Source of the DNA: a virus
Lineage: Duplodnaviria; Caudoviricetes
Strand: one strand, 5' to 3'
Virus record (IMG/VR): IMGVR_UViG_3300033562_001863
Coordinates: 1-59,489 of that record
DNA: 59,489 nucleotides
A program made the position numbers and the translations under genes. How positions within the stretch are numbered: position 1 is the first letter of the stretch; each line of letters opens with the position of its first letter. The notes under the pieces are model-generated. The model was not told where the DNA came from, searched no databases, and was given only the letters and a program-made list of their open reading frames with translations. Positions 1 to 41,561 of the stretch are shown here, in pieces.

Positions 1-177
1 AAAGTTGCCAGAATATTAAATAGAGAAACTAGCTTTAAGTATCATTTAGAGTTCTTTGAAAATGTAAATGGGCATACTTGCGGCGGTAGTGTCGAAATGG
101 GTCATGGGTACTATATTGGAGATAGGGAAATGGATGACTTAGAGTTAGTCAGTAAACAACTAGAGTTCCCATTCTAG
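1..177 (+). CDS. Partial (5'-truncated) small SH3-like family protein ending QLEFPF
   Basis: Frame 1 is open from base 1: ...EFFENVNGHTCGGSVEMGHGYYIGDREMDDLELVSKQLEFPF*; aligns by eye with ORF 13392-13658. Confidence 0.8.
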   Translation, partial: KVARILNRETSFKYHLEFFENVNGHTCGGSVEMGHGYYIGDREMDDLELVSKQLEFPF

Positions 178-184
178 AAAATAC

Positions 185-213
185 TTGACAAAGTTTTTAT
201 TTCATGGTATAAT
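185..213 (+). promoter_or_regulatory. sigma70-type promoter (repeated family)
   Basis: TTGACA-N17-TATAAT with TG extended -10. Confidence 0.85.
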
Positions 214-264
214 AATAGTACAAGGAAATAGCTCGTATGAGCGAAAAAACTTATAGGGGGTTAT

Positions 265-546
265 ATGAAGAAAGTGTTTTGCCTTTATTCTATTTATGGT
301 TCTGGCGATGGAGACACCGAGTTTCAACTGGAAGCAATCTGCGAAACCATAGAAAGGGCTTTAGAAGAAGCAAAGCGTGTTTTTTCTTATTTTAAAGACC
401 GAAGAATTAACCCTATCAATAAAAAAATGAATATCGAAAATAGCTTTACCTTCATTGGAAGTAGAGAAGACGCAGATGAAATCCACGGATGTGGTTATGA
501 CAATGCTGGCGGTTTCGTAATAGAAGAAACAGAAGTTCTATCGTAA
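265..546 (+). CDS. hypothetical protein
   Basis: ORF with GGGGG RBS after promoter. Confidence 0.75.
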   Translation: MKKVFCLYSIYGSGDGDTEFQLEAICETIERALEEAKRVFSYFKDRRINPINKKMNIENSFTFIGSREDADEIHGCGYDNAGGFVIEETEVLS

Positions 547-589
547 TAAATCCTATTTTAAGATATAATATATTGAGGAAGGGGGAAAG

Positions 590-982
590 ATGAAAATGAG
601 TAAAAATGTGGCAAATGTTGTCACGCTCGTTTCTACGGTACTATTGATACTGTTGATAGTATTCACAAGTTCCTGTGGTTTGGCGGCAAGGTCTGCCTAC
701 GGCGTAGCGCAGCGAACGCTTGACCCGGACAAGATTATCGGGGACTACCACTGGTTTGAAGACCAGTACGGTGTCATCAAGTCGATGGGCTTCAACATCG
801 AGCAGAAACAGGCAGAGTTCAACTCCATGGAAAATGGAGACGCCAGAGAGCGTATGCGAATGGAGCTGTCTGGTATGAAGGCCGTGTATTCAAGGAATGT
901 CCAAGAATACAACTCAAAATCTCGGCAGATAGATAGGGTGCTTTGGAAAAGCAAAGACCTACCTTATGAAATAACGCAGTAG
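590..982 (+). CDS. predicted lipoprotein
   Basis: Basic N-terminus, hydrophobic stretch, lipobox FTSS-C. Confidence 0.7.
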   Translation: MKMSKNVANVVTLVSTVLLILLIVFTSSCGLAARSAYGVAQRTLDPDKIIGDYHWFEDQYGVIKSMGFNIEQKQAEFNSMENGDARERMRMELSGMKAVYSRNVQEYNSKSRQIDRVLWKSKDLPYEITQ

Positions 983-1007
983 CACAAACATCCAAGGGGG
1001 AAAAAGA

Positions 1008-1541
1008 ATGAAGAAGATTTCAATGTTTCTGTTGGCCGTGATAGCTTTCACTATCACTTCGTGCGGACTTGACCTATCAGGCGGCTACGTCCCAACAGCG
1101 CAGCAGACGGCAGAAGTTGCATCTAAGGAATCGGCAAAGGTATCCTCAACTACCATTCCTGTTCCGAATCTCTCCTACTTTCAGGAGAGGCGAACCATCG
1201 CAAAGTGGGCTGAAAGGTGGGATATTCCCAACGTTGTAACCTATGTCTATCTTGTGTCCTACGGGAACATTATTGGATACTATGTGGCTGATGGTAAGCC
1301 CGCTTCTACTCGTTCGTATGTTACTCCTGAAAATACCTTTGTACACGGCGTCGATGTGGGGGAAAGTTATGGAGATGTCCTTGTGGAGGCTCCCGATATA
1401 GACGGAACCTATGGAGAAAACAACTCTGGTATTCGTTTCTTCACGGCAGATGGAGCCGCAGTAGAATGGGGAGGCAATGGAGCAACCTATCTGTATAGCG
1501 ATGTGCCGTTGTCGATAAACGTTCCCTTGCTCCATAAGTAG
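1008..1541 (+). CDS. predicted lipoprotein, paralog of 1590-2093
   Basis: Lipobox ITS-C; shares PVPxLSYFQERRT, DGKPASTRSY, APDIDGTYG with next ORF. Confidence 0.75.
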   Translation: MKKISMFLLAVIAFTITSCGLDLSGGYVPTAQQTAEVASKESAKVSSTTIPVPNLSYFQERRTIAKWAERWDIPNVVTYVYLVSYGNIIGYYVADGKPASTRSYVTPENTFVHGVDVGESYGDVLVEAPDIDGTYGENNSGIRFFTADGAAVEWGGNGATYLYSDVPLSINVPLLHK

Positions 1542-1546
1542 CTCCA

Positions 1547-1576
1547 AGCCCCACCTTTTGGTGGGGCTATTTTTTC
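1547..1576 (+). terminator. Rho-independent terminator
   Basis: AGCCCCACC-TTTT-GGTGGGGCT followed by T-run. Confidence 0.7.
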
Positions 1577-1589
1577 ATAAGGAACAAAA

Positions 1590-2093
1590 ATGAAGAAGTT
1601 CATCGTTCTATTCATTGCCATACTGGTAATGTTTTCTTCGTGTTCTATTGAGCCAAGTGCTCGGCAAAAAGCAGACACCGCTTCAAGGAGTACGGCAGAG
1701 GTAGCCATTTCTACCATTCCAGTCCCACAGCTTTCCTACTTTCAAGAGCGAAGAACAGCCAAAAAGTGGGCAGAGTATTGGGATATTCCCAATGTCATCA
1801 CATACGTCTACGTAGTAGCCAATAATGGCTCCATAGTAGGGTATTTTGTAAGTGATGGTAAACCCGCTTCTACTCGTTCATACCTGACGCCAGAGGAACA
1901 GTTTTATTCCTATGGTAATTCTACTATTGTGTCTGCTCCCGACATAGACGGAACCTATGGAGACAATAACCCCGGCATTCGTTTCTTTACAGCAGAGGGT
2001 GTCCCTGTAGAGGTTGGAGGCAACCTTGGCTATATCTATAGCCCTGCCCCATTGCCGCTCAATGTTCCGGTGCTTACACCAGTCAAGAAGTAG
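1590..2093 (+). CDS. predicted lipoprotein, paralog of 1008-1541
   Basis: Lipobox FSS-C; tandem paralog. Confidence 0.75.
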   Translation: MKKFIVLFIAILVMFSSCSIEPSARQKADTASRSTAEVAISTIPVPQLSYFQERRTAKKWAEYWDIPNVITYVYVVANNGSIVGYFVSDGKPASTRSYLTPEEQFYSYGNSTIVSAPDIDGTYGDNNPGIRFFTAEGVPVEVGGNLGYIYSPAPLPLNVPVLTPVKK

Positions 2094-2112
2094 CTTAAAA
2101 ACTAACTAATAG

Positions 2113-2140
2113 AAAGCCCTACCATTCTGGTAGGGCTTTT
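2113..2140 (+). terminator. Rho-independent terminator
   Basis: AAAGCCCTACCA-TTC-TGGTAGGGCTTTT. Confidence 0.7.
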
Positions 2141-2144
2141 GCTA

Positions 2145-2173
2145 TTTACAAAGTTTTGATTTCAGGGTATAAT
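2145..2173 (+). promoter_or_regulatory. sigma70-type promoter
   Basis: TTTACA-N17-TATAAT. Confidence 0.75.
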
Positions 2174-2194
2174 AATAGGGTGGAGGGCAACAAC

Positions 2195-2419
2195 ATGGCA
2201 ATACAAGATGCTATAAGTTTTATAAAGAGCAAAGCATTTAATGACTTACAGTACCTCTTTGAGCATGAAGTTAGTTATTGCTGGCAAGAAGAAACTCCTG
2301 ACGAGGTAAGGGCAAGTAGGGCTGGAACTATAATAAGAAGAGCAAACGAAGAAATAAAAAAAGCAAAAGAAAAATACAGGTCGAAGGTTGCGGAAAACTC
2401 TAACAGTTCTATCCTATAA
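2195..2419 (+). CDS. hypothetical protein
   Basis: ATG at 2195 after GGAGG. Confidence 0.65.
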   Translation: MAIQDAISFIKSKAFNDLQYLFEHEVSYCWQEETPDEVRASRAGTIIRRANEEIKKAKEKYRSKVAENSNSSIL

Positions 2420-2430
2420 GGAAGGTTACA

Positions 2431-2718
2431 ATGCCAACAGTTGATAAAGAAACACTGATAAGAAACTGTAAAATAATAATAGAAAAAGGAAAGTGTGTTG
2501 ATATTTTCTCAGAATATACTAAAACAATCTTTCGTGTAACTTGTGAAACCTGCCCTTTTACTTATCACCATCGTGAAAACAGCTTTGTAGATAAAGACAA
2601 AAAAATAGGTTGCGTAGAAAAGCTTGGATGTTTTGCTGAAAATGGGGATATAAAAGTTGCTTGGTTCAAAAAATGGTTGGCTAAAAATACTACTCCAGAA
2701 CAGTTTGAGCTTTTTTAG
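2431..2718 (+). CDS. Cys-rich small protein (NCKIII...WFKKWL family) ending QFELF
   Basis: Paralog of 9463-9723 and 10761-11000. Confidence 0.75.
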   Translation: MPTVDKETLIRNCKIIIEKGKCVDIFSEYTKTIFRVTCETCPFTYHHRENSFVDKDKKIGCVEKLGCFAENGDIKVAWFKKWLAKNTTPEQFELF

Positions 2719-2731
2719 AAAGGAGAAACAA

Positions 2732-3289
2732 ATGGATAAAGATTTCGCGTTAAGCAAAGGCATTTATCTTGAAGTTATCTCCTATGTACAAGAAAAACAC
2801 GCAGACCAATATAGAAAGTTTAGCATGGCTCCTTACTGGGTTCATCCCATACAAGTAGCTTGCTTGATTCAGAAATATAAAAAATCCCACAAAATAGATG
2901 AACTTGTGATTGCTTCCTTGCTCCATGATGTAGTAGAGGACACTGACACTACCATAGAAGAAATAGAAGAACTGTATGGCTCACTTGTAGCATCTTTGGT
3001 TGGAGAACTTACGTCTGATAAAACTGAAATAAAAATACTTGGTAAAACAACATATCTTTCTAGTAAAATGAAAAAGATGAGTTCTTGGGGTTTGGCAATA
3101 AAGTTATGTGATAGATTGAATAATATATCTGACCTTATATATGCCGACGAAGCATTTAGAAAAAAGTATATAAAAGAAACAGTGCTTATACTAAAAGCAC
3201 TAGAAGAAAGAGAGCTGACTTCAACACACTTAGAGATTATAAAAAGTATCAAGAGTTTTATTAGCATAGTAGCGGGGGAAAACCAATGA
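2732..3289 (+). CDS. HD-domain hydrolase, (p)ppGpp hydrolase (SAH/MESH1)-like
   Basis: HxxQxRK..PYxxHP, LLHDVVEDT, KLCDRLNN motifs; AGGAG RBS before ATG 2732. Confidence 0.85.
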   Translation: MDKDFALSKGIYLEVISYVQEKHADQYRKFSMAPYWVHPIQVACLIQKYKKSHKIDELVIASLLHDVVEDTDTTIEEIEELYGSLVASLVGELTSDKTEIKILGKTTYLSSKMKKMSSWGLAIKLCDRLNNISDLIYADEAFRKKYIKETVLILKALEERELTSTHLEIIKSIKSFISIVAGENQ

Positions 3290-3630
3290 ACGACCTTAAT
3301 AGTATAATACTCGAAGGAGTAGCTAAACTGGATGAACTACACGAAGTTCCTGGTGAAGAAGAAGTTTCTATTACTGTTTATAGTACAAAAACAAAAGTAC
3401 AAGTAATAGCTAAAAGCGCACTTGCTTTATCTGTGAGGGATTTTTGTGTTGGAGTAGATGCTTTTAGGTGCAGAGTAGTTGGTAGGCTAGAGTATGATGG
3501 TGGCGGTGTTTTTCTCGTAGCAGAACATATAGAATTCAGGCCCAAGCCCGAAGTTAAAATCCGGATTCCTTTTATCGGTTATCCAATGAAATATAGAGTA
3601 AGAGACAAACAGAAGAAGTTTGATTTCTAA
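3286..3630 (+). CDS. SSB-like OB-fold protein (spirochete-type), ends QKKFDF
   Basis: MNDLNSIILEG...RVVGRL...VAEHIEFRP resembles spirochete SSB-family proteins (recalled, not searched). Confidence 0.6.
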   Translation: MNDLNSIILEGVAKLDELHEVPGEEEVSITVYSTKTKVQVIAKSALALSVRDFCVGVDAFRCRVVGRLEYDGGGVFLVAEHIEFRPKPEVKIRIPFIGYPMKYRVRDKQKKFDF

Positions 3631-3635
3631 AAGTA

Positions 3636-3664
3636 TTTACAAAGTTCCATATCTATGGTATCAT
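3636..3664 (+). promoter_or_regulatory. sigma70-type promoter
   Basis: TTTACA-N17-TATCAT. Confidence 0.65.
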
Positions 3665-3690
3665 TATAGCAGCAACTATATGGGGGTTTT

Positions 3691-4620
3691 ATGGCAGTAG
3701 ATATGGTTTTACTTTTGGATATTTTTAATATATACTCTTCTTCTGGCGAAGAGAAAGAAATGGCAACTTTCATTATGGGACATCTTTCCAAAAATGGAAT
3801 ACCATTCAAAACAGATGCTTATGGCAATATATTTAGCATAAGCAACAATACTCCTTTGCTATCCTCTCATATGGATACAGTAATGAGGGAGAGGAAAATG
3901 TTTGATTCTCGGCCTATAACTGTTATTAAAAATCTTCTAACCAACAAGATGGAAGTAAGGGGAGAAAGGCCAAGAATAATAGGTGCTGACGACAAATGCG
4001 GTATCTATATAATACTAAAACTCCTTGAAGAGAAAAAGGACATAAACTTTTTGTTCTCTACTGGAGAGGAAGTTGGAGCAGTTGGAGCATTTGGCTTTGT
4101 TGAGGAAAACAACTTGACACATATTCCCTATGCCATAGTTCTAGATAGAGGACATAGCGGGGATATCATTTGCTCTAAAAACAACTACGGAACAAAAGAG
4201 TTTGAAGAGGCTCTTGAAAAAATAGGTGTTGGCTTTGGTTATAAATCAACGGGCGGTGTTTTCTCTGACTGCGATGCCATTAACGGGAAACTGTCCTGTG
4301 CCAATCTTTCGGTTGGATACTATGGCGCTCATTCGTTCAAAGAATATTTTGTCATAGAAGAAATGGAAAATGCTTTAAACTTTACGAGAGCTATCCTTGA
4401 AAATATAAAGGAAAAGTTCCCAGCACCAGATCTTCATAAAGTATATTTTTCAAGCAGACTCGATGATATATTTGTGAAAAAATGTTCTGTGTCTGGAGAG
4501 ACAAATATTGAAAAACTTATCTTCCTTGAAAAATATGGAGAGTACATTAGTATCGATGTTGTGCGCGAACTTATGATAAGGTTTAATCTTGTTCAAGATA
4601 AAACTATTAAAGGTAAGTAA
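3691..4620 (+). CDS. M20/M28-family zinc peptidase
   Basis: SSHMDTV, GADDKCG, GEEVG, SD, NLSVGY..H motifs. Confidence 0.85.
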   Translation: MAVDMVLLLDIFNIYSSSGEEKEMATFIMGHLSKNGIPFKTDAYGNIFSISNNTPLLSSHMDTVMRERKMFDSRPITVIKNLLTNKMEVRGERPRIIGADDKCGIYIILKLLEEKKDINFLFSTGEEVGAVGAFGFVEENNLTHIPYAIVLDRGHSGDIICSKNNYGTKEFEEALEKIGVGFGYKSTGGVFSDCDAINGKLSCANLSVGYYGAHSFKEYFVIEEMENALNFTRAILENIKEKFPAPDLHKVYFSSRLDDIFVKKCSVSGETNIEKLIFLEKYGEYISIDVVRELMIRFNLVQDKTIKGK

Positions 4621-4641
4621 AACATATTATAAGGAGTATCT

Positions 4642-4887
4642 ATGGTTGATTCTTCAAAGATAACCCCTTTCCCTGTTTTTCTTATTCAGGATTTAATAAA
4701 CATAGGAATACCTGAAACTTGGAATAGAAAAATACTTTACGGCGACAAATATATAAATACACTCAACTCCCTTATTGTAACTCAAGGTAAGACAACTGAT
4801 GATTGTTATGATAAGATTTTCAAAGTTCCAGATAGCCAGATGGTGGAGATGCCAGAGAACTTTTTTGATGGATCATTTACTCTATAA
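4642..4887 (+). CDS. hypothetical protein
   Basis: ORF with AGGAG RBS. Confidence 0.6.
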   Translation: MVDSSKITPFPVFLIQDLINIGIPETWNRKILYGDKYINTLNSLIVTQGKTTDDCYDKIFKVPDSQMVEMPENFFDGSFTL

Positions 4888-4893
4888 AAACTC

Positions 4894-4922
4894 TTTACAA
4901 AGAAAACTACTCATGGTATAAT
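4894..4922 (+). promoter_or_regulatory. sigma70-type promoter
   Basis: TTTACA-N17-TATAAT. Confidence 0.75.
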
Positions 4923-4956
4923 AATAGCACGGGACAAGAAAACTAAGGAGGCCACT

Positions 4957-5235
4957 ATGAGCAAGACTTGGGATGACGGTGCTATTCTCTATAAAGATAC
5001 AGAAGATGAAATCAAGATGATGGAAGAGCAGGAAGTCACGGCCAAAAATCGCGGAGAGGTTTATGGCGCTCATTGCTCGTTCCACGGCAAGGCAAGGGGA
5101 AGCTTCAAAACAAACACGAAGGTTTCTGTCCCCAGGGTCAAGAAAATGCACGTCAATACTTCTTCCAAGGTTTGGAAGGATTATATGGACAAGAAGATCT
5201 CTTTCGCTCAGATGAAATCTACTCTCGGCATATAA
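4957..5235 (+). CDS. hypothetical protein
   Basis: AGGAGG RBS. Confidence 0.7.
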   Translation: MSKTWDDGAILYKDTEDEIKMMEEQEVTAKNRGEVYGAHCSFHGKARGSFKTNTKVSVPRVKKMHVNTSSKVWKDYMDKKISFAQMKSTLGI

Positions 5236-5248
5236 GGAGAAATGGCAA

Positions 5249-7006
5249 ATGACAGAAGATGACAAGAACAATCTAGTTATTCTTGACAAAATGTTTGAGA
5301 AAAACTTTGACCTTGACCCAAAGTCGATAGAGTTTGCCAAGAACTGGCTTCGTGAGCCAAAACTTGACCCGAAGTTCGCTGCCATAGTGGGTGATGACTT
5401 TCGCGCTCGGTGGGATATTCCCGTTAGTGATTTTGGTGAAAACAAGGACAAGGCATGGGCTTTGTTCCAGATGTATTTTGGTAGTGGAACTTGCTCTTCG
5501 CTTGGTATAACATATGATGCGTTCTTGTCAAATACCTGTAAGGTTGGTAAGGACAATGTAAAAATAAGCAAAGTTCTCAACAAGTGTTTTGCTTCTAACC
5601 CCGGAATCTTCAAATCGCTTATATCCAATCAAGGTAGGCAAGTTTTTGCTGACCTCAAGGTTCCAGTAGACATTGGGGCCATGATTAGCGAATCGAATGA
5701 AGAGAAAATAAAGGGAAATATAGAAATATATATCACCAGAGCGAACGAAAAAATAGGGCAGATAAAACTACCCAAAGAGCAAGCTGGCTATCAGATAGTT
5801 CTTTCGTTCAACTTTGTTGATTGGCTCCTGGCTTCTACCGGAGATAGTTTCACTTCTTGCATCGGACTTGAAAGCTCTCATGGATATTGGTTCGGCCTCC
5901 CTTTTATGCTCGACGACAGGAGTAGGGGCTTCCTATACATAACAAAGAAGGTCGCTGAAAAGAAAGAATATCTCGGACTTAAGGCAGATCATCTCTCAAA
6001 TAGAGAATGGGTTTTTCTTGCGAACGACGATACGCTTCATGGCTTTAGGTGGTACCCGAAAGATACCCCTGTTGAGATTACTTTTCCTATGTTGTCTAAG
6101 CTAACTGGATTAAGTATTTCCAGTGAAGGATTTACAAAGTCGAAGTATCCTATAGGCGAAAATATTCATGTAAAAAATACAAATGTTTTTTGTACGCCAT
6201 ACCTTGATAATGTTGGAATCCAAAAATACTCAGAGGATGGTAAATATTACTATTCAACCCGTAATGGAAGTTCTGGAGCAAATATTTGTGGAGATAGGCA
6301 CAATGGTTCAAATATATATAATGGCTCTATTTTGCTTAAGACTCTATATAAGACTGGACTTGGCAATATAGAGGCAAGAGATTATTCAGTTTGCTCGCAG
6401 TGTATGGTAAAATACAAAAGAACAGAAATAAGATTTTTTGACGTTGTAAGTGAGGATGGTGTTTCCGAAAGTGTTTGTCCTACTTGCTACGAAAAGAAAT
6501 ATACGAAGTGCGAAGAGTGCGGAAGAACACACATAAAAGAAGAACTAAAGAAAACCAAGGATTATAAAAAAGGCATTTGCAAATCTTGTTTTAGTTCTTT
6601 ATATATAAAATGCGAAAGCTGCGGAGAAATTTCTCTGGCGAGAAGTTTGAAGAATGGCATATGCGAGAAGTGTGTTACAGACACGACTAAAATAGTTATC
6701 TGCGAATACAGCAAGGAACTTCTTGTGAAGAAAAAGGCATTCCCTGTTTACAACAAAGATACGATTTGGTATTTCAAGGATGCTGATGCCTATTCTTTGT
6801 TTGCCGAGGACGAAGGGTTGAACAAGAAAAACTTCAAAGGTTGTGATACTTGTGGAGAGGTAAGCCATAATTCTGTATTGATACAGAGTTACACTGGCGA
6901 AGTGATATGTAGAAAATGCGCTGACAAAGCAGCATTAAAGAAGCAGTTATGGTTTGACTTCAGTGTTCCAAAGAAAAAGAAGGAAAAAGCAGTAAAGGCC
7001 GGGTAA
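5249..7006 (+). CDS. Cys-motif protein (NFxDWxLxSTxxxxxSC family) with C-terminal CxxC zinc ribbons; sub-terminal QLWFDF
   Basis: NFVDWLLASTGDSFTSC...YWFGLP...D..R shared with 45071, 48096, 49529; many CxxC pairs. Confidence 0.75.
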   Translation: MTEDDKNNLVILDKMFEKNFDLDPKSIEFAKNWLREPKLDPKFAAIVGDDFRARWDIPVSDFGENKDKAWALFQMYFGSGTCSSLGITYDAFLSNTCKVGKDNVKISKVLNKCFASNPGIFKSLISNQGRQVFADLKVPVDIGAMISESNEEKIKGNIEIYITRANEKIGQIKLPKEQAGYQIVLSFNFVDWLLASTGDSFTSCIGLESSHGYWFGLPFMLDDRSRGFLYITKKVAEKKEYLGLKADHLSNREWVFLANDDTLHGFRWYPKDTPVEITFPMLSKLTGLSISSEGFTKSKYPIGENIHVKNTNVFCTPYLDNVGIQKYSEDGKYYYSTRNGSSGANICGDRHNGSNIYNGSILLKTLYKTGLGNIEARDYSVCSQCMVKYKRTEIRFFDVVSEDGVSESVCPTCYEKKYTKCEECGRTHIKEELKKTKDYKKGICKSCFSSLYIKCESCGEISLARSLKNGICEKCVTDTTKIVICEYSKELLVKKKAFPVYNKDTIWYFKDADAYSLFAEDEGLNKKNFKGCDTCGEVSHNSVLIQSYTGEVICRKCADKAALKKQLWFDFSVPKKKKEKAVKAG

Positions 7007-7015
7007 GGAGATAAA

Positions 7016-7342
7016 ATGAAAGTTCTTCTGGTAGAGGATAGCACCTATAGAATAGATGACTTCAAAATCTTGGCTAAAGCAAGAAAATGGGATTTGTGCA
7101 TAGCTAAGACCTACCAGAAGGCCATTTTATTTCTTATACTCTTTAAGTTTGAAACCATATATTTAGACCATGATTTAGCCAGTGATAAAACTGGATATGA
7201 TGTGGCTAAGTTTATAAAGAAACATAATATAAAAAGCTCTATCTATATACATAGTCAAAATGTTGTAGGAGCAGAAAACATAAATAGGATTCTTCCATAC
7301 GCTGAAAGGGTTCCTTTCCATCTTATCAGAGAGAGGATTTAA
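7016..7342 (+). CDS. cyclic-phosphate-processing receiver-like domain protein
   Basis: LLVED, YLDHDL, TGYDVAKFI, IHSQNVVG motifs. Confidence 0.7.
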   Translation: MKVLLVEDSTYRIDDFKILAKARKWDLCIAKTYQKAILFLILFKFETIYLDHDLASDKTGYDVAKFIKKHNIKSSIYIHSQNVVGAENINRILPYAERVPFHLIRERI

Positions 7343-7894
7343 ATGAATGAAAACGAAGCAATAAATCTGTTAAATCTGTGGCGATCCGTATCATTAACCG
7401 ATGACGCCTGCGAGTTTGCTGACCATGTTGGTATCGATTATGATCATGCTGCGGTCTCATTTTATTTAGGTTACAAAGCTGCCATAAACTCGCTGGCCGT
7501 GGAGCCAACAAAGCCCAAGATATCCAAAACCTGTTGGACGTGCAGAAAGAACAAAGGCGATAAGGACTGCGCAGACCACGACCAGCAGTACATGGGAGGG
7601 TGTCCTATTTGGGCTAGCATTGCACCAGAAATTGTAGAACCAAGTGATGATGCTGACGAGATAGCATGGAATATTGAAGGCTTATTTCATAAGAGGGAGC
7701 ATTATACAGACGATCATGAAAAGATAAAGTCTATCATAACCGCCCGCGACGAGCGCATCAGGCGGGAGTGCGCGGACAGGGCTCGGGAGGCGATAGTGAG
7801 TAAGCGTTGTTCCGTGATTCATAAATCTATGGCGGCTAATTACGCAGAACGAGCCATCCTCGGCACCGAGCCAGCTCGGGAGGAATCAGAATGA
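7343..7894 (+). CDS. hypothetical protein (higher-GC patch)
   Basis: CxxC..C..C cluster; ITARDERIR repeat also in next ORF. Confidence 0.65.
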   Translation: MNENEAINLLNLWRSVSLTDDACEFADHVGIDYDHAAVSFYLGYKAAINSLAVEPTKPKISKTCWTCRKNKGDKDCADHDQQYMGGCPIWASIAPEIVEPSDDADEIAWNIEGLFHKREHYTDDHEKIKSIITARDERIRRECADRAREAIVSKRCSVIHKSMAANYAERAILGTEPAREESE

Positions 7895-8424
7895 ACGAAC
7901 TTAAACCATGCCCGTTTTGCGGCGGAGAAGCAAGGCGAATTGATATCGATGCTACCAAGCCATCGGTACCTGACGCTGGTGCATCTTATATAGCTTGCGG
8001 AAGATGCTATGCCTGCTCGCCCATTATGTTCGGAGAAAAAACAGGTCTTGAAGAGTCATGGAATCGCCGTGCCCTCTCCACCATCGACCCCGATGCGAAG
8101 CCGAAAGAGCTAAGCAAGGATGTGCGTGATTTTACCCTGCAACTTACCAAGAGTTACGACACCTTGGGGGTTACTTACAAGAGATTGGATTGCCTAGATG
8201 CCCTCATAACCGCCCATGACGAGCGCATTCGCAATGAATATGAAAAAGTTATAAAACTTAAAGATGAAGCTAGAATAAATAATATACATCATTGTGCAGA
8301 AGTGATAAAATCGTCTAATGAAAATACAAGACAGAAAGCTTTGCTAGAAGCAGCTATGGAAATAGAGAAGATTAAAAAGCTGCTTCAAGATGAATATGAA
8401 TCTCAAGCAGGAGAATCGCTGTGA
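7891..8424 (+). CDS. Lar-like restriction alleviation zinc-finger protein
   Basis: LKPCPFCGGEA...C..C...WNRR. Confidence 0.7.
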   Translation: MNELKPCPFCGGEARRIDIDATKPSVPDAGASYIACGRCYACSPIMFGEKTGLEESWNRRALSTIDPDAKPKELSKDVRDFTLQLTKSYDTLGVTYKRLDCLDALITAHDERIRNEYEKVIKLKDEARINNIHHCAEVIKSSNENTRQKALLEAAMEIEKIKKLLQDEYESQAGESL

Positions 8425-9171: not shown

Positions 9172-9479
9172 TGTCTAAACTATACAGGGTAGTTAGAGAA
9201 GAAGAGGCTATAGAAAAGGTTAGAAAATGCTACCGTATTTCTAAAGAGAAAGCCACTGAAAGAGTAAAATATGGAAACTTATTTCATTTTTCTCCTGGTA
9301 TTAGTGTAATACCTTATTCTTTGAAAAGGAGACTTGGAAAATCTTTTAGAAGAGTTGATGAAAAAACAATAAGATTTTCTGGAGAAAAAGATACTCTTAC
9401 TTATAGTAAAGAAAGAGTAGAAGAGCTTTTAAATGTATATATTTTCTCCGAGGCAGAACAATATGAGTTCGAGTTTTAA
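9171..9479 (+). CDS. hypothetical protein ending QYEFEF
   Basis: ORF; C-terminal tail motif. Confidence 0.7.
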   Translation: MSKLYRVVREEEAIEKVRKCYRISKEKATERVKYGNLFHFSPGISVIPYSLKRRLGKSFRRVDEKTIRFSGEKDTLTYSKERVEELLNVYIFSEAEQYEFEF

Positions 9480-9723
9480 TTTTAACGATACTGACGAGAA
9501 AATAAAGGTAACTCTTGTTTCTAACTGCAAAATGATAATAAAAGAAAAAAATTGTGAGGGTGTTAGGTGTAGTATTATGACTTGCCCTTTTTATTTTGAG
9601 AGTGGTAGTTCTGACTGCGTGTCTATTTTTGGATATTTTGGTAGAGACGATGATAAACCAATGATTTGGTTCAAAAAATGGTTAAAAAAATACACATCAA
9701 TGCAATATGAGTTTGATTTCTAA
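9463..9723 (+). CDS. Cys-rich small protein ending QYEFDF
   Basis: Paralog of 2431 and 10761; start uncertain (9433 or 9463). Confidence 0.7.
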   Translation: MSSSFNFNDTDEKIKVTLVSNCKMIIKEKNCEGVRCSIMTCPFYFESGSSDCVSIFGYFGRDDDKPMIWFKKWLKKYTSMQYEFDF

Positions 9724-9728
9724 AAGTA

Positions 9729-9757
9729 TTGACAAAGAAAATAGTTTATGATATAAT
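9729..9757 (+). promoter_or_regulatory. sigma70-type promoter
   Basis: TTGACA-N17-TATAAT. Confidence 0.8.
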
Positions 9758-9771
9758 AGAAGGTATAGAAA

Positions 9772-10764
9772 ATGAGAAAACTTGCTTCGATAAAAATAGT
9801 TTCCATAGTTCCTCATAACAACGCAGATAAACTTGAAATAGCAAAAATAGATGGTTGGCAATGTGTAGTTGGAAAGGGCGAGTTCAAAACTGGAGATAGG
9901 GCTGTTTATTTTGAAATCGATAGTATTCTTAATAAAGAAGATGAGAGATTTTCTTTTATGGAAGATAAAAAATATAGGGTAAGAACTATATCTCTTCGTG
10001 GTCAGATTTCTCAAGGTTTGGCCATGCCTATTTCAAAGTTTCCAGAGTTAAAAAGCTATACGATAAATGATGACGTTACAGAAATATTGAAAGTAGAAAA
10101 ATATGATCCTCCCTTACCAGTATGCTTAGGGGGAGAGCATCGATGTTATTTCCCAGGGATAGTTCCAAAAACAGATGAACCAAGAATACAGTTGTTCCCT
10201 AATATATTTGATGATTTCAAAGGAAAAGAAATATATATTTCCGTGAAGTGTGATGGAACCTCTGGCTCCTTTATAAATATAGATGGAGATTATCACGTTT
10301 GTGGAAGGTCTGTTTCCTTCAAAGAAAATGACGATAATACTTTCTGGAAGTTAAGCAAAAAATATAATCTAAAAGAAAAAATGCTTGCTTATGGCAACTA
10401 TGCTATTCAAGGCGAAGTGTGCGGCCCAAAAATACAGAAGAATAGGTTGAATTTAAAAGACCACGAACTGTTTGTATTCAATGTCTATGATATAGATAAT
10501 AAGAGATATTTTGATTTTGACGATTTTATGCATTTTTGTAATAGTTTAGAGCTTAAAACAGTCCCTATTATATTTAGAGGAGAGTTACCTTTTTCAACTA
10601 TAGAAGAAGGGTTGCTATATGCTGATGGGAAATATGAAGGGACTGATAATCTTCGAGAAGGTATTGTAATAAGAGCGACTAAAGGTTTTCATTCAAACGT
10701 AATAGGTGGTAGAAGTTCGTTCAAGATAATTTCTAATAAATATCTTCTTGAAGGCGGGGAATGA
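9772..10764 (+). CDS. ATP-dependent RNA ligase, DRB0094/Rnl5-like
   Basis: N-terminal RKLAS..ADKLE..DGWQCVV..YFEIDS module; KCDGTS, QGE, EGIV, SFK motifs. Confidence 0.85.
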   Translation: MRKLASIKIVSIVPHNNADKLEIAKIDGWQCVVGKGEFKTGDRAVYFEIDSILNKEDERFSFMEDKKYRVRTISLRGQISQGLAMPISKFPELKSYTINDDVTEILKVEKYDPPLPVCLGGEHRCYFPGIVPKTDEPRIQLFPNIFDDFKGKEIYISVKCDGTSGSFINIDGDYHVCGRSVSFKENDDNTFWKLSKKYNLKEKMLAYGNYAIQGEVCGPKIQKNRLNLKDHELFVFNVYDIDNKRYFDFDDFMHFCNSLELKTVPIIFRGELPFSTIEEGLLYADGKYEGTDNLREGIVIRATKGFHSNVIGGRSSFKIISNKYLLEGGE

Positions 10765-11000
10765 AAAAGCCAACAGAACTGCTTATTGAAAACTGTAAAA
10801 TAATAATAAGCAATAAAAACTGTTATCATTGCGGTATTAGATGCACTCGTGATAGTTGCCCGCTTGTCTTCGAAATAAAAAGTATGGACTGTGCTTCTAC
10901 TTTTGGACATTTCAATGATGAAAACAATAAAAAGCCATTAGTTTGGTTCAAAAAATGGTTAAAAAAATACACATCAATACAATATGAGTTTGACTTCTAA
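10761..11000 (+). CDS. Cys-rich small protein ending QYEFDF
   Basis: Paralog of 2431 and 9463. Confidence 0.75.
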   Translation: MKKPTELLIENCKIIISNKNCYHCGIRCTRDSCPLVFEIKSMDCASTFGHFNDENNKKPLVWFKKWLKKYTSIQYEFDF

Positions 11001-12167: not shown

Positions 12168-12437
12168 ATGAAACTAAAAACAGGGGACAAAGTAAAATGT
12201 ATTAACGGGTATCTGGGTGGTTGGGGAGGTATGACTGGAACCGTAGTAGATTTAAAAAAAGCAGCCGATTATTCTGATGACCACATACCAATAGATTTTG
12301 GCAAAAAAAGCCCCAAAGGCGAAGGCCATAAACTTGACGGCCTAATAAAAACTGAAACTGGTTGGTGGTTTCCCATCTGCCGCTGTGACTATTATTTACA
12401 AAAAGTGTCTGTAAAGCAGTATGAGTTTAGTTTCTAA
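12168..12437 (+). CDS. small SH3-like protein (GDKV..GW.G..G.V..DF..GH.L..TGWWFP) ending QYEFSF
   Basis: Paralog of 17566, 40306, 41253. Confidence 0.75.
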   Translation: MKLKTGDKVKCINGYLGGWGGMTGTVVDLKKAADYSDDHIPIDFGKKSPKGEGHKLDGLIKTETGWWFPICRCDYYLQKVSVKQYEFSF

Positions 12438-28426: not shown

Positions 28427-28432
28427 AAGTCC

Positions 28433-29216: not shown

Positions 29217-29287
29217 GTTCCCTTCGTCTATCGGTAGGACGGTTTGTTCTCAGCAAACAAAGATTGGTTCGACTCCAGTAGGGAATA
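29217..29287 (+). tRNA. tRNA-Glu(CTC) copy 6
   Basis: GTTTG-TTCTCAG-CAAAC. Confidence 0.85.
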
Positions 29288-30483: not shown

Positions 30484-30696
30484 ATGGATTATTCTATCGG
30501 TGAAAAAGTAGAATGTATCACAGATTTACATCCCTATATAAATAAAGGTTCTATTGGAAGAGTAATAGTTGTTGGTAGTATTATGTCAAGTATGGAAGTA
30601 GTTTTTTTAGATGTTTTGAAAGGTAAACCCATAGATTGGATATACGCTATACACATTAAAAAAACTATTCCAAAGCAACTTGAGTTTTCTTTTTGA
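30484..30696 (+). CDS. small SH3-like protein ending QLEFSF
   Basis: YSIGEKV..G..G.V. Confidence 0.7.
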   Translation: MDYSIGEKVECITDLHPYINKGSIGRVIVVGSIMSSMEVVFLDVLKGKPIDWIYAIHIKKTIPKQLEFSF

Positions 30697-31209: not shown

Positions 31210-31256
31210 AAGCGATGTAGCGACTGACGGTATATCCTTTTTATTTCATAAACTAC

Positions 31257-31285
31257 TTGACAAAGTTTTTTGTTTAGTGTATAAT
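31257..31285 (+). promoter_or_regulatory. sigma70-type promoter
   Basis: TTGACA-N17-TATAAT. Confidence 0.8.
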
Positions 31286-31290
31286 AATAG

Positions 31291-32801: not shown

Positions 32802-33179
32802 ATGAAAGAAAAGTATATTAAAGCTCTAGAGTTTTTAAAGCGCCCTGGTTATTCATATACCAATTTTCAAAGCAAGTATTTAGACCATTGCAATATTTTT
32901 AACCTTAAACTGTTTTTTACAGAAGATCCAAGAAATGAACATATTTACACTGATTTCAATGTAGAATCTATTTGGAAAAAATATAATAGATTTTGTCTTG
33001 AAATATTTCCTAATATTATGGAAAAAACTTATGATATAGAAACGAAAAGAAATCAGATGTTTAGCAGTGTTTATGAAAAAATGGGTATAAGGTTAAGTGA
33101 TTTATCTATAGAAAGTATTAACTTGATTTTGAATATTTTTTACGATAAAGAAGATAAGCAACTATATTTTGATTTTTAA
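32802..33179 (+). CDS. hypothetical protein ending QLYFDF
   Basis: ORF; tail motif. Confidence 0.7.
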   Translation: MKEKYIKALEFLKRPGYSYTNFQSKYLDHCNIFNLKLFFTEDPRNEHIYTDFNVESIWKKYNRFCLEIFPNIMEKTYDIETKRNQMFSSVYEKMGIRLSDLSIESINLILNIFYDKEDKQLYFDF

Positions 33180-34211: not shown

Positions 34212-34546
34212 AAGTAATAGTAGCAGGTGGAAGAAACTTTGAGCCAAAAAGCGAACACAAAAAATGGCTTAAAGAAACAATAAAAAAACTAAATGCTACT
34301 GAAATAGTTTGTGGTATGGCAAAAGGCGCTGATTTCTTTGGCTATGAAGTAGCCAAAGAAATGTATATTCCAGTAAAAGAGTTTCCAGCAAAATGGGCTT
34401 TGTTTGGTAAAGGTGCTGGATACTTAAGAAATGAGGATATGGCGCAATATGCTGATGCCTGTATATTATTTCCTGGAGGAAAGGGAACCGCTATAATGGA
34501 AATATTAGCAGCAAGATATAAACTGACTATCGTAAAATGGGAGTAA
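34208..34546 (+). CDS. SLOG (YspA/DUF2493) family protein
   Basis: VAGGRNF, GMAKGAD, AGYLRN..MA, FPGGKGT. Confidence 0.85.
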   Translation: MKVIVAGGRNFEPKSEHKKWLKETIKKLNATEIVCGMAKGADFFGYEVAKEMYIPVKEFPAKWALFGKGAGYLRNEDMAQYADACILFPGGKGTAIMEILAARYKLTIVKWE

Positions 34547-34551
34547 TCTTC

Positions 34552-34580
34552 TTTACAAAGTTTTAGTTCTATATTATAAT
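34552..34580 (+). promoter_or_regulatory. sigma70-type promoter
   Basis: TTTACA-N17-TATAAT. Confidence 0.7.
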
Positions 34581-34586
34581 ATATAC

Positions 34587-35807: not shown

Positions 35808-36607
35808 TGACAAATAAAGAAACTGTGTTACCATTATTTAGATGGAGTGGCGGAAAGAGAAGTGAGATTGATTTATTCAGGCAGTTCTATCCAGAAAACT
35901 TTTCTACTTATGTAGAACCTTTCTTTGGAGCTGGCGCTGTATTCTTTGATTTACAATTCGCAGGAAATAATATCATAAGCGATATCCACCCAGAAAGTAT
36001 TAACTATTTAAAGGAAATACAAAAAGGGAATGGAAGAAAAATATATGATATGCTTAAAGAAGCAAGAAATGAAGAAGATTATTATTATTATATAAGAGAT
36101 GACTTTGAAATAAAAGACGATACTGATTCTGCTTTCAGGTTTATTTATCTCAGGAAAACTTGCTACCGTGGAATGTTAAGGTATAATAAAAAAGGCGGGT
36201 TCAACATTCCTTTTGGCAGGAGTAAATCTTTTACTTTTGAAGAAATACTAGACCCTAAATACTTTGAACTTCTATCAAGAACAACAATCTTGAACGAAGA
36301 TTTTAGAACAGTCATGGCAAAAACAGAAAGTCCAGAAAGTTTTGTTTTTTTAGACCCTCCATACGATTCTGTCTTCACTGATTATGGTTACTGTACGTTT
36401 GGCAGAAAAGACCATGAAGATTTAGCTAACATATTTAAATCTACTAAAAGCAAGTGCCTACTTATAATAGGTGGAACCCCTCTTATACAGGAGTTGTACG
36501 AACCTTATATTATTGGTAGTTATAGTAAAAAATATGCCTTCAAGATACATAGCGGTCGAGTATCATCTGAAATAGACAAAGAGCATTTAGTAATAAAAAA
36601 CTATTGA
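35807..36607 (+). CDS. DNA adenine methyltransferase (D12/Dam class)
   Basis: WSGGK, EPFFGAGA, FLDPPY. Confidence 0.9.
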   Translation: MTNKETVLPLFRWSGGKRSEIDLFRQFYPENFSTYVEPFFGAGAVFFDLQFAGNNIISDIHPESINYLKEIQKGNGRKIYDMLKEARNEEDYYYYIRDDFEIKDDTDSAFRFIYLRKTCYRGMLRYNKKGGFNIPFGRSKSFTFEEILDPKYFELLSRTTILNEDFRTVMAKTESPESFVFLDPPYDSVFTDYGYCTFGRKDHEDLANIFKSTKSKCLLIIGGTPLIQELYEPYIIGSYSKKYAFKIHSGRVSSEIDKEHLVIKNY

Positions 36608-36632
36608 CAAAGTTTCTATTATAGAGTATAAT
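36604..36632 (+). promoter_or_regulatory. sigma70-type promoter
   Basis: TTGACA-N17-TATAAT. Confidence 0.8.
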
Positions 36633-36652
36633 AAATATGAGGGAAAAATAAA

Positions 36653-38730: not shown

Positions 38731-38745
38731 CATTAGAAAAAGTCA

Positions 38746-38774
38746 TTGACAAAGTTTTTTAGATATGGTAAAAT
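38746..38774 (+). promoter_or_regulatory. sigma70-type promoter
   Basis: TTGACA-N17-TAAAAT. Confidence 0.7.
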
Positions 38775-38793
38775 TAAAGTAAGGAAGAAGTTT

Positions 38794-40151: not shown

Positions 40152-40152
40152 T

Positions 40153-40254
40153 AAATCATAGACCTTTAATGGTATTAGCTTGGTTCGACTCCAAGGCTGG
40201 GGTTAGCTTCGGCTTACCCTAGTGTTGTCATCGCGGAGGGATGGCCTATGATTT
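40153..40254 (+). ncRNA. Y-RNA (YrlA)-like circularly permuted tRNA mimic
   Basis: Closing stem, then T-arm, loop-closed acceptor-like stem, GG-containing D-like arm. Confidence 0.5.
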
Positions 40255-40258
40255 TTTT

Positions 40259-40286
40259 ATAACCTATTCAATATTGAATAGGTTAT
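40259..40286. terminator. perfect 28-bp palindrome / terminator
   Basis: ATAACCTATTCAAT|ATTGAATAGGTTAT followed by T-run. Confidence 0.55.
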
Positions 40287-40305
40287 TTTTATTAAGGGGA
40301 TAAAC

Positions 40306-40557
40306 GTGAAACTTTTTATAGGGCAGAAGGTTTTCTGTAATTTTGGCTCTTGGAAGAACCACACTGGTATTATAGCTGTAATTGTTGCCGATGAAGTCGG
40401 TATTGACTTTATTAAAGACCCTAGAACAAACCTGGGTCATAATCTAAGAGGGCACATAAACACTGATACTGGCTGGTGGTATCCAGGGTATATTTTTGAA
40501 GATAAAGAGTATTTCACGATTATTAAAGAAAATAAGCAACTTGAATTTGACTTCTAA
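40306..40557 (+). CDS. small SH3-like protein ending QLEFDF
   Basis: GH.L.G...TGWWYP family. Confidence 0.75.
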   Translation: MKLFIGQKVFCNFGSWKNHTGIIAVIVADEVGIDFIKDPRTNLGHNLRGHINTDTGWWYPGYIFEDKEYFTIIKENKQLEFDF

Positions 40558-40563
40558 AAGTTC

Positions 40564-40592
40564 TTGACGAAGTTTTGACTTCGTGGTATAAT
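40564..40592 (+). promoter_or_regulatory. promoter with palindromic spacer
   Basis: TTGACGAAGTtttgACTTCGTggTATAAT. Confidence 0.8.
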
Positions 40593-40613
40593 AATAGTAC
40601 GGGGGAAAGAAAA

Positions 40614-40958
40614 GTGAAAAAAAATATTTTTTTTATTGCGTTTATCTTTTCTGTTTTCTGCGCTTTTTCACAGGTTCCTAACGACAATATTTATGGAGAT
40701 TATAAAATAGATTGTGAAGGGTGCCCGTATTCTAGGATGTTTGTTTCTATAGATGGAACACTCTATCTTTTTCAAGATAAAAATACTAATCCTACCATTT
40801 ATGTTTATGATTTTATAGATAACCTTATGTTTATAGGAAACGCTGGTTATTATTACTCTTTCAAAAAAGAAAATGATATATGGGTTCTTACCATAATACC
40901 TGCTTTTGGAGAAGCTGGATACAATAAAGTTGTATGTTATAAACTCGGGAGTTATTGA
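40614..40958 (+). CDS. secreted hypothetical protein
   Basis: GTG 40614; signal peptide KKNIFFIAFIFSVFCAFS. Confidence 0.6.
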   Translation: MKKNIFFIAFIFSVFCAFSQVPNDNIYGDYKIDCEGCPYSRMFVSIDGTLYLFQDKNTNPTIYVYDFIDNLMFIGNAGYYYSFKKENDIWVLTIIPAFGEAGYNKVVCYKLGSY

Positions 40959-41242
40959 TGAGTTTTAAAGTTGGAGATAAAGTATTAGTTAAAAAAAATG
41001 TATGGGACAAAAAAGAACTAAATAATAAAATAGGCAAAATAGTAAAAATGAGTTCAGATAAAAGAGAATGTATTATTGAATTTAGAGAAAGCATGAAATT
41101 CTGTCACGACGGATGTAGATATTATATTGATGGAGTAGCAGATATTGTAGGAAAAGATGGATATTGCTGGGGCTTTATTATTAGTGGAGGGAACGATATT
41201 ATTGAGTTAGTTGGAGACAAGCAACTTGAGTTTGCTTTCTAA
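40955..41242 (+). CDS. small SH3-like protein ending QLEFAF
   Basis: FKVGDKV...IEF..H.G..GK.GYCW. Confidence 0.75.
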   Translation: MMSFKVGDKVLVKKNVWDKKELNNKIGKIVKMSSDKRECIIEFRESMKFCHDGCRYYIDGVADIVGKDGYCWGFIISGGNDIIELVGDKQLEFAF

Positions 41243-41252
41243 GGATAAACTT

Positions 41253-41525
41253 ATGAGACCACTTAAAATTGGAGACAGAGTAGTTTGTATTAGAGATTAC
41301 GACAATGGCGGGTGGGCGGGATTAAGTGGAACTGTTGTTGCCATATATGAAAAACGTGATGATGTTGGGGTTGAGTTTGATAGACAATCTAATAAAGGAT
41401 TTGGCTATGGGCACGACCTTAATAAAAGAATTGAAAATGATAACGGTTGGTGGTTTCCTTATTTCGATATATATTATTATGTAAAAATAGTAGAAAAAAA
41501 TAAGCAACTTGAATTTGATTTTTAG
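41253..41525 (+). CDS. small SH3-like protein ending QLEFDF
   Basis: ATG 41253; GGW.G..GTVV..VGVEF..GH.L..GWWFP. Confidence 0.75.
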   Translation: MRPLKIGDRVVCIRDYDNGGWAGLSGTVVAIYEKRDDVGVEFDRQSNKGFGYGHDLNKRIENDNGWWFPYFDIYYYVKIVEKNKQLEFDF

Positions 41526-41532
41526 AAAATGC

Positions 41533-41561
41533 TTGACGAAGTTTTTACTTCGTGGTATAAT
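41533..41561 (+). promoter_or_regulatory. promoter with palindromic spacer
   Basis: TTGACGAAGTttttACTTCGTggTATAAT. Confidence 0.8.

Follow-up and report, generated by a model that had tools for sequence, protein, structure and literature searches.

A shared C-terminal tail and a family of promoter cassettes in the accessory gene array of an uncultured T4-like phage

Organisation of the array and the tag-promoter junctions

The IMG/VR virus record IMGVR_UViG_3300033562_001863 was analysed as a whole (59,489 bp; hereafter the window) and has an estimated completeness of about 25%. Positions 1-52,000 hold an array that runs in one direction and contains about 90 genes, mostly unknown, and 22 tRNA genes, and the right end of the window carries late genes on the minus strand, including a gp18-type tail sheath. 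The array holds a gp63-type RNA ligase and an RNA-repair-type gene set, and most of its open reading frames (ORFs) have no match in Pfam or PHROG. It is an accessory region of the kind that T4-type phages carry between core blocks. The kinship with T4 is seen in the gp18-like tail sheath and the gp63-like RNA ligase, both of which are T4-like; the record lacks the replication core genes, and neither a DNA polymerase nor a sliding clamp, gp55 or gp33 was found within its 59.5 kb. The phage is a distant, uncultured member of the T4 superfamily with Gram-positive-style signals, namely a TGn extended -10 box and strong GGAGG/GGGGG ribosome sites. Here, we describe two features of its array: a short C-terminal tail that is shared by many of the encoded proteins, and whose coding DNA we call the tag, and a family of promoter cassettes that often begin directly at the stop codon of the preceding gene.

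The initial annotation had listed ten tagged ORFs that stop about 5-10 bp before a -35 box. All ten were recovered, with gaps of 5-9 nt, and all ten have the C-terminal sequence Q-x-[E/K]-F-x-F. The junctions between tag and promoter are as follows:

157-218, plus strand: junction 1, QLEFPF, stop at 177 (TAG), A-rich gap of 7 nt, promoter P185 with TTGACA, 17 nt and TATAAT, then AATAG
3610-3669, plus strand: junction 2, QKKFDF (AAG in place of GAG), stop at 3630, gap of 5 nt, P3636 with TTTACA and TATCAT
9703-9762, plus strand: junction 3, QYEFDF, stop at 9723, gap of 5 nt, P9729
10980-11040, plus strand: junction 4, QYEFDF, stop at 11000, gap of 6 nt, P11007 with TTTACA and TATGAT
15063-15126, plus strand: junction 5, QLEFEF, stop at 15083, gap of 9 nt, P15093
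17842-17902, plus strand: junction 6, QFEFVF, stop at 17862, gap of 6 nt, P17869
21864-21923, plus strand: junction 7, QFEFVF, stop at 21884, gap of 5 nt, P21890
25596-25656, plus strand: junction 8, QFEFSF, stop at 25616, gap of 6 nt, P25623
40537-40597, plus strand: junction 9, QLEFDF (GAA), stop at 40557, gap of 6 nt, P40564 of the spacer-hairpin class
41505-41566, plus strand: junction 10, QLEFDF (GAA), stop at 41525 (TAG), gap of 7 nt, P41533 of the spacer-hairpin class

These junctions had been condensed into the consensus of a unit of about 55 bp. The exact form of the unit does recur, and the pattern GAGTTY-NNN-TTY-TAR-N4-10-TTKACR has seven matches on the plus strand, as compared to none in each of 100 dinucleotide shuffles. 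However, there are departures from the consensus in the Glu codon (AAG at 3630, GAA at 40557 and 41525), in the stop codon (TAG at 177 and 41525), in the -35 box, which is TTTACA in three cases, and in the -10 box, which is TATCAT or TATGAT in two.

Promoter cassettes and the extent of the copied DNA

The promoters at the junctions belong to a single family of 26 intergenic promoters, all on the plus strand, and a 27th match is located within a gene. Matches were scored against TTKACRAA(G), a 17-nt spacing and a TATAAT-like box (extended -10, then AATAG) and reached 10-12 of 12; in positions 1-40000, all sites scoring at least 11 are on the plus strand. Judged by these boxes, the 26 promoters are predicted to be active as strong early promoters of the sigma70/sigmaA type. 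In 24 of them, the promoter lies -4 to 16 nt from the upstream stop codon, ten behind tagged genes and 14 behind untagged genes, and the abutment of stop and -35 box is not specific to the tag. The left edge of the cassette is usually TAAAA(G/A)T, which either provides the stop codon for any gene that comes from the left or lies immediately behind that codon, and the 14 promoters behind untagged genes have the same A-rich edge as those behind tagged genes. Four untagged ORFs stop at a TGA within the -35 sequence TTGACA or TTGACG itself (20521-20523, 24452-24454, 36605-36607 and 43982-43984). There are few canonical terminators in the array. A 7-bp hairpin with a folding energy of -7.6 to -8.3 kcal/mol is present in the spacer of seven promoters (14115, 24451, 26151, 26806, 40564, 41533 and 41783), where it is equalled by at most 2% of shuffled sequences, and the remaining 19 spacers form no more stable folds than shuffled sequences.

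The longest perfect repeats are two pairs of cassettes, 93 and 64 nt long, which start 7-8 nt to the left of the -35 box, just after the stop codon:

178-270, plus strand: cassette copy A, with A-tract, promoter, leader, Shine-Dalgarno (SD) sequence and ATGAAG; identical to 20513-20605 at 93 of 93 positions, both flanks unrelated
20513-20605, plus strand: cassette copy B (P20520); the TGA within TTGACA is the stop codon of the untagged ORF upstream
26143-26206, plus strand: cassette P26151 of the hairpin class; identical to 26798-26861 at 64 of 64 positions, flanks unrelated
26798-26861, plus strand: cassette P26806 of the hairpin class, the twin of P26151, upstream of the tRNA block

The right edge of the 93-nt repeat is exactly the ATGAAG of the next gene, and three of the four copies follow an untagged gene. 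Since these cassettes are 100% identical and are embedded in unrelated flanks, they were copied recently, and since the identity begins at the stop codon and excludes the tag, the copied unit is the promoter cassette. Across all 325 promoter pairs, the median leftward reach of the similarity beyond the -35 box is 1 nt, and it exceeds 14 nt only where the genes before both promoters are tagged. In tagged pairs with an equal gap, the codons that the peptide constrains lengthen this leftward similarity by 22-29 nt, at about 85% identity. The identical cassettes at 178-270 and 20513-20605 are, in addition, direct repeats around a 20.3-kb block of the array, and recombination between them would excise this block as a circle.

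The other members of the family are located at the following sites:

2137-2178, plus strand: P2145, not abutting, gap of 51 nt, with a hairpin terminator upstream
4886-4927, plus strand: P4894, 6 nt past an untagged stop
14107-14148, plus strand: P14115 of the hairpin class, 16 nt past an untagged stop
24443-24484, plus strand: P24451 of the hairpin class, an untagged ORF ends at the TGA within the -35 box
28425-28466, plus strand: P28433, 6 nt past an untagged stop
31249-31290, plus strand: P31257, not abutting, gap of 47 nt
34544-34585, plus strand: P34552, 5 nt past an untagged stop
36596-36637, plus strand: P36604, an untagged ORF ends at the TGA within the -35 box
38738-38779, plus strand: P38746, 15 nt past an untagged stop
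41775-41816, plus strand: P41783 of the hairpin class, 6 nt past an untagged stop
43973-44014, plus strand: P43981, an untagged ORF ends at the TGA within the -35 box
46256-46297, plus strand: P46264, 8 nt past an untagged stop
49474-49515, plus strand: P49482, 6 nt past an untagged stop

A cassette may also have been lost, as suggested by a pair of paralogs with 47% identity over 96 residues, of which the tagged protein (24892-25215) is 11 residues longer than the untagged one (26219-26509). The untagged copy had been noted to end in the sequence that normally follows the -10 box. Consistently, AATAGCACGG is found five times in the window, four times directly after a -10 box and the fifth time at 26505, in the remnant of a promoter and its leader:

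26498-26523, plus strand: TACAAT, a leader of the AATAGCACGG type, in which TAG is the stop codon of the untagged paralog, and the SD sequence of gene 26524

The suggestion that this paralog has lost both its tag and the promoter fits a deletion, probably at a short microhomology, that extended from the end of the gene into the -10 region of the cassette once behind it and took out the tag together with the -35 box and spacer. Such a deletion lies within one unit and does not represent an exchange between two. Behind the tagged paralog, positions 25216-25240 read TAAAGT...GGTAATAGCAC, which corresponds to the left edge and the start region of a cassette with the boxes missing. This could be a collapsed promoter cassette, but the shared 8-mer is found by chance elsewhere in the window too.

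The closest known counterparts of the cassettes are the promoter early stem-loops (PeSLs) of T4-type phages, which in the consulted parts of their description consist of an AT-rich stretch with a stop codon, sigma70 boxes, a stem-loop that often lies between the -35 box and the -10 box, and a 3' SD sequence with a start codon, and which cluster in accessory regions ahead of genes without relatives (Arbiol et al. 2010, PMC2839356). Shuffling mediated by PeSLs and the formation of mini-circles have been shown in T4-type phages (PMC2839356; Comeau et al. 2014, PMC4122927), and degraded copies occur near indels (PMC4122927). The cassettes in the window are similar in that they are repeated near-consensus sigma70-type promoters in the accessory region of a T4-like myovirus, with the upstream stop codon in an A/T-rich left edge (24 of 26) and, at the right edge, an SD sequence with a start codon. 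In some copies, a stem-loop lies between the -35 box and the -10 box, identical copies have unrelated flanks, and a degraded copy is placed beside an apparent deletion, such that the paralog remnant resembles the degraded half-PeSLs near indels (PMC4122927). They differ in that only 7 of 26 contain the stem-loop, and in that their host phage is distant and uncultured, with Gram-positive-style signals. Furthermore, the shared tail is encoded by the gene in front of ten of the 24 abutting cassettes, a feature that is absent from the consulted parts of the PeSL descriptions.

No close relatives of the window were identified in phages, IMG/VR or metagenome contigs. A near-identity DNA search of the phage collection gave zero matches, and the tail sheath as a query against IMG/VR retrieved no relative. 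The promoter pattern and the combined tag and promoter pattern had no match in one search and four single, chance-like matches in another; a further pattern search gave 13 matches, none of which, on reading, had a Gln at -6 or a -10 box, and the promoter pattern had no match in metagenome contigs. A metagenome scan with a two-sequence alignment yielded, among the matches listed, four distant KOW-like loci, none of which has a tag and one of which is a ribosomal protein operon. Among more distant relatives, which were identified via a large family of paralogous proteins, each has a conserved series of promoter cassettes of its own. For example, the series in the IMG/VR record L027 (201 kb; 1457-8205) and in L028 (1118-9443) consist of near-identical cassettes, and six of the L027 copies share their spacer. 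Lineage-specific cassette families thus seem to be the rule in the group.

DNA of the window was found in one sequencing run, as contigs, and no RNA run was listed with this DNA. In this single run, low-depth contigs at 15698-15850 and 16982-17099 (about 4-7x versus 18-23x) differ from the window at many sites, which indicates that a related strain co-occurs in the sample, a microbial mat, as a minor component that is diverged by about 10%. Five joints between contigs from the Logan assembly were discarded as repeat artefacts, as their short side has 20-57 letters or lies within tRNA repeats. One joint of low depth, from 14143 to 20564 with 16 other letters in between and a side of 29, is too short to count; it could represent a chimeric cassette in a minor strain.

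The C-terminal tail

The strict tag is present in 17 of the 375 plus-strand stop-to-stop frames with at least 30 codons. On the minus strand, a loose tag pattern was matched by 2 of 574 frames, neither of which contains E-F, and no convincing copy was found. Seven of the 17 strict tags are not followed by a promoter. There are also three variants, two copies with extra residues after the tag and one QFELF, which bring the count from 17 to 20. The tags away from promoters and the variants are the following:

9459-9479, plus strand: QYEFEF and stop, no promoter, overlapped by the next tagged ORF
12417-12437, plus strand: QYEFSF and stop, no promoter, followed by a ribosome-binding site and the next gene
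13638-13658, plus strand: QLEFSF and TGA, no promoter
14771-14791, plus strand: QLEFEF and stop, no promoter, tagged gene next
30676-30696, plus strand: QLEFSF and TGA, no promoter
33159-33179, plus strand: QLYFDF and stop, no promoter
41222-41242, plus strand: QLEFAF and stop, no promoter, tagged gene next
25189-25206, plus strand: variant QFEFNF, then Ser-Ser and the stop at 25215, in the tagged paralog 24892-25215
6944-6961, plus strand: near-terminal variant QLWFDF, then a Lys-rich tail of 14 residues, in the 585-aa ORF 5249-7006
2701-2718, plus strand: five-residue variant QFELF and stop, in ORF 2431-2718, which is paralogous to the tagged Cys-rich family

The tag resembles a conserved DNA element in its codons. 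While GAA accounts for 75% of the Glu codons overall, the Glu residue of the tag is encoded by GAG in 14 of 16 cases. Glu before Phe is, however, also encoded by GAG in 34 of 39 cases in the gene bodies, because the tetranucleotide AATT is strongly avoided (107 observed versus 397.5 expected, window-wide). The same avoidance leads to CAG before TTT and bars TTA and TTG after CAA. The preferences for GAG, CAG and TTC were therefore rejected as a proof that the tags descend from a common DNA sequence. Other palindromes are also avoided in the window, including ATTAAT (0 versus 16.3 expected), GTATAC (0 versus 10.3) and GAGCTC (2 versus 9.3), and TGCA and GATC are low. In pairwise comparisons, the DNA of the 17 tails is identical at 12.94 of 18 nt, as compared to 12.56 +/- 0.23 nt in simulations in which the tails were back-translated with the context-dependent codon usage of the genome (p ~0.06), and for the ten tags next to promoters the corresponding values are 13.20 and 12.72 +/- 0.32 nt (p ~0.09). 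In a distant relative without AATT avoidance, the same tail is encoded with CAATTG and GAATTT. By these sequence comparisons, the tag is conserved as a peptide, with no sign of a shared DNA ancestry.

The tail is placed on several families without detectable mutual similarity, namely KOW/SH3-like proteins, Cys-rich proteins and a protein of 585 residues. A profile search with the KOW/SH3-like family against 1.84 billion representatives identified 178 relatives at E <= 0.001. C-termini were read for 152 sequences, which are the best 150 of the 178 relatives and two further homologues. Sixteen of these 152 end with the six-residue tail, four of them in the window and 12 from other samples, and one more contains it 7 residues before the end. 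In the alignment of the 17 tailed sequences, the Q, the E and the last F are invariant, although the identity to the first sequence is 29-43%, with one pair at 80%. The homologues of the tagged family are all located on contigs of at most 5.5 kb. Two distant relatives also contain one QLEFEF tail each, on proteins that are unrelated to those in the window and without a promoter after it. The retention of the tail in diverged homologues and in distant relatives argues for an old docking signal at the level of the peptide, which has been multiplied in this phage. The predicted structure of the tagged protein 40306-40557 is a KOW/SH3-like barrel with a mean predicted local distance difference test (pLDDT) score of 88.8, in which the terminal ~11 residues are devoid of secondary structure and the final pLDDT blocks are 80 and 75; Foldseek matches to the model were weak and KOW/SH3-like (E >= 0.036). 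In this model, the tail is predicted to be exposed and flexible.

The pattern Q-x-x-[FLWY]-x-[FL] of motifs that bind the bacterial sliding clamp is matched by the 17 strict C-terminal copies, next to one terminal QFELF, a likeness of pattern. In the parts of the literature consulted, the bacterial clamp motif QL(S/D)LF is described at C-termini (PMC9690074), and both five-residue (QADMF, QLDLF) and six-residue (QTSMAF, QLSLPL) motifs are given (PMC3664792). The tail in the window agrees with these in that the first residue is Gln, the residues at positions 2, 4 and the last one are hydrophobic and the residue at position 3 is small or acidic, and also in that the motif is often terminal and has both five- and six-residue forms. 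It differs in that Phe replaces Leu at positions 4 and 6, in that Glu3 is almost invariant, and in that ~20 accessory proteins of one phage fragment carry it. In T4, gp43, gp55 and gp33 have interchangeable hydrophobic and acidic C-termini, an LDFLF motif is given, and a loop in the ligase also binds the gp45 clamp, according to the consulted parts of PMC2988020 and PMC6212786. The gp45-binding tails are thus similar in being short hydrophobic and acidic termini on unrelated proteins of a T4-type phage, but LDFLF contains three consecutive hydrophobic residues and no Gln, whereas the residues alternate in the tail described here. The partner of the tail is quite possibly a sliding clamp, either that of the phage or that of its host. 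No family-B polymerase or beta clamp was found in the five records of distant relatives that were searched; the gp45 model was blank there, as it also was in control genomes. A thin search of the literature retrieved no account of a phage in which many accessory proteins share a clamp-type tail.

Two other groups of genes in the array are described here for completeness. Six tRNA-Glu (CUC) genes (16432-16502, 27321-27393, 27730-27800, 28152-28222, 28828-28898 and 29217-29287) have nearly identical acceptor, D and T arms, and their anticodon stems differ by compensated changes; only two of the six reach the Rfam threshold for tRNA. Their neighbours are of the RNA-repair type and include two RNA ligases, a kinase, two HD proteins, a metallophosphatase and a cyclic-phosphate receiver domain. 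This suggests either a defence against an anticodon nuclease of the host or a supply for the GAG codons that are forced by the avoidance of AATT. Four large paralogs (5249-7006, 45071-46255, 48096-49475 and 49529-51961) share the conserved core NFADWFLCST..SW.SC and have Cys-rich, zinc-finger-like tails, and weak LIM-like matches are the only hint at a family assignment. They have homologues in six other IMG/VR contigs of 26-201 kb, and two paralogous M20/M28-like peptidases are encoded near them (3691-4620 and 46360-47454).

Explanations for the junctions

The junctions are probably best explained as the meeting of a peptide docking tail with a PeSL-type promoter cassette, two independent features that touch. 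The tail K-Q-hydrophobic-E-F-x-F would serve as a C-terminal docking motif that is selected as a peptide on at least 17 accessory proteins. The cassette would comprise an A-rich stretch with a stop codon, TTGACA, 17 nt, TGnTATAAT, the AATAG start region, a leader and an SD sequence, and it alone would be copied, decay and be deleted, with the tag outside the copied unit. Tagged genes would preferentially trail transcription units, often right after the gene for an RNA-repair enzyme, and may encode adaptor subunits that are made after their partner enzyme. They are depleted from the first place of transcription units (1 of 17 versus 24 of 72), and several are placed directly after an enzyme gene, with an overlap of a few bases; the enzymes are an RNA ligase, the ligase of the gp63 type, a kinase and an HD phosphohydrolase. 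Enzyme genes with a trailing tagged gene include 9772-10764 (followed by 10761-11000), 11054-12166 (followed by 12168-12437) and 12898-13395 (followed by 13392-13658). Because the cassette starts at any upstream stop codon, each tagged gene that ends a unit yields the 55-bp 'unit' of the initial annotation. The junction follows in an ordinary way from a cassette architecture of the PeSL type, and the cassettes, between which we infer that recombination takes place, add a new instance to a known kind. Of the original proposal of recombining tag and promoter repeats, the cassette family in an accessory array and its recent copying are retained, but not the tag as a part of the unit, nor the re-tagging of genes.

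Several observations weigh against this explanation or favour the original proposal, according to which the tag DNA and the promoter are one homologous-recombination repeat of about 55-65 bp whose exchanges expand, contract and re-tag the array. Ten of 17 tagged genes touch a promoter, as compared to 14 of 73 untagged genes (odds ratio 6, p = 0.002), and among small genes only, 10 of 17 tagged and 8 of 43 untagged genes end a transcription unit (p = 0.004), counts that include paralogs and thus are not independent events. Pure coincidence is insufficient as an explanation of this bias. Three of the seven tags away from promoters precede another tagged gene that does abut one. Junction pairs in which both upstream genes are tagged align over 56-62 nt, and with an equal gap the similarity across the junction is up to 62 nt at 85% (17869 and 25623), which could provide an extra substrate for recombination. 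The proteins that end at 40557 and 41525 are only 37% identical, yet their genes have a stretch of about 22 identical nt that runs into the tag and takes in the rare GAA codon, and the untagged paralog ends in a leader, as though tag and promoter had been lost together. Moreover, the recombination of PeSLs and their mini-circles are established in T4-type phages in the part of PMC2839356 consulted. The stem-loop from which PeSLs take their name is missing from all but 7 of 26 promoters, and the repeated cassettes interrupt the Logan contigs of the single run, such that the linkage across cassettes rests on the original assembly. We nevertheless consider a composite repeat unlikely, as the tag is outside the only perfect repeat pairs and the similarity of the tag DNA is explained by the peptide and the avoidance of AATT. 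Seven tags have no promoter next to them, 14 promoters lie behind untagged genes, the best-sampled family inherits the tail together with its domain across 17 diverged homologues, the tail is present without a promoter in two distant relatives, and the paralog case is a deletion in one unit instead of an exchange between two. A related and somewhat more doubtful possibility is a plug-in kit addressed to a hub, in which ~20 accessory proteins, many of them small KOW/SH3-like adaptors whose synthesis directly follows that of RNA-repair enzymes, would be recruited by the tail to one hub (a sliding clamp on the phage DNA, or another ring or scaffold). As tagged genes are placed at the ends of units, tag and cassette would form a shared sequence of ~60 bp that lets the addressed modules swap between genomes. 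It is very improbable that the tag DNA is instead a UP-like upstream promoter element and the peptide a by-product of ORFs that read into it. The tag is T-rich and located at about -38 to -60, and nine of the ten tags next to promoters end with TTC, eight of them followed by TAA, as compared to TTC in three of the seven others, but the same peptide and codon habits are found at the seven sites without promoters and at the variant sites, the tail is present on homologues and on unrelated proteins from other samples, and the 14 promoters behind untagged genes share the A-rich edge.

The docking tail itself may be real at the level of the peptide and yet not bind a clamp, in which case it could be a degradation signal that times the early proteins, or could address another hub, such as a domain that binds a free hydrophobic C-terminus, RNA polymerase, the ribosome or an RNA-repair scaffold. 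We regard this as rather unlikely, but it is favoured by the gene neighbourhood, as many tagged genes trail RNA-repair genes, namely those for two RNA ligases, a kinase and an HD phosphohydrolase. The best-sampled family also has a KOW/SH3-like fold, which is typical of RNA- and ribosome-binding proteins, and Glu3 is stricter than the printed clamp motifs need. Finally, a clamp and a DNA polymerase are missing from the window and were not found in the five distant relatives, which leaves the clamp reading to the likeness of the motifs. On the other side, the six-residue (QLEFPF, and QYELPF in a homologue) and five-residue (QFELF) forms mirror those of the bacterial clamp motifs in the consulted parts of PMC3664792 and PMC9690074, and the two tails that are followed by further residues argue against a strict need for a free C-terminus.

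These results extend the idea of PeSLs, that regulatory cassettes are the seams of gene shuffling, to a distant, uncultured lineage of T4-like phages, and the window provides a clean example of a cassette that was copied with exact edges. They also show that an apparent conserved DNA unit can be an illusion that arises from a conserved peptide in combination with the avoidance of restriction sites. The part most worth following is the tail, which is present on roughly a fifth of the accessory genes, on unrelated folds and often beside RNA-repair enzymes. If its partner is the sliding clamp, an unusually large accessory set would be tethered to one hub, and a single peptide would offer a handle on the targets of dozens of unknown early proteins.

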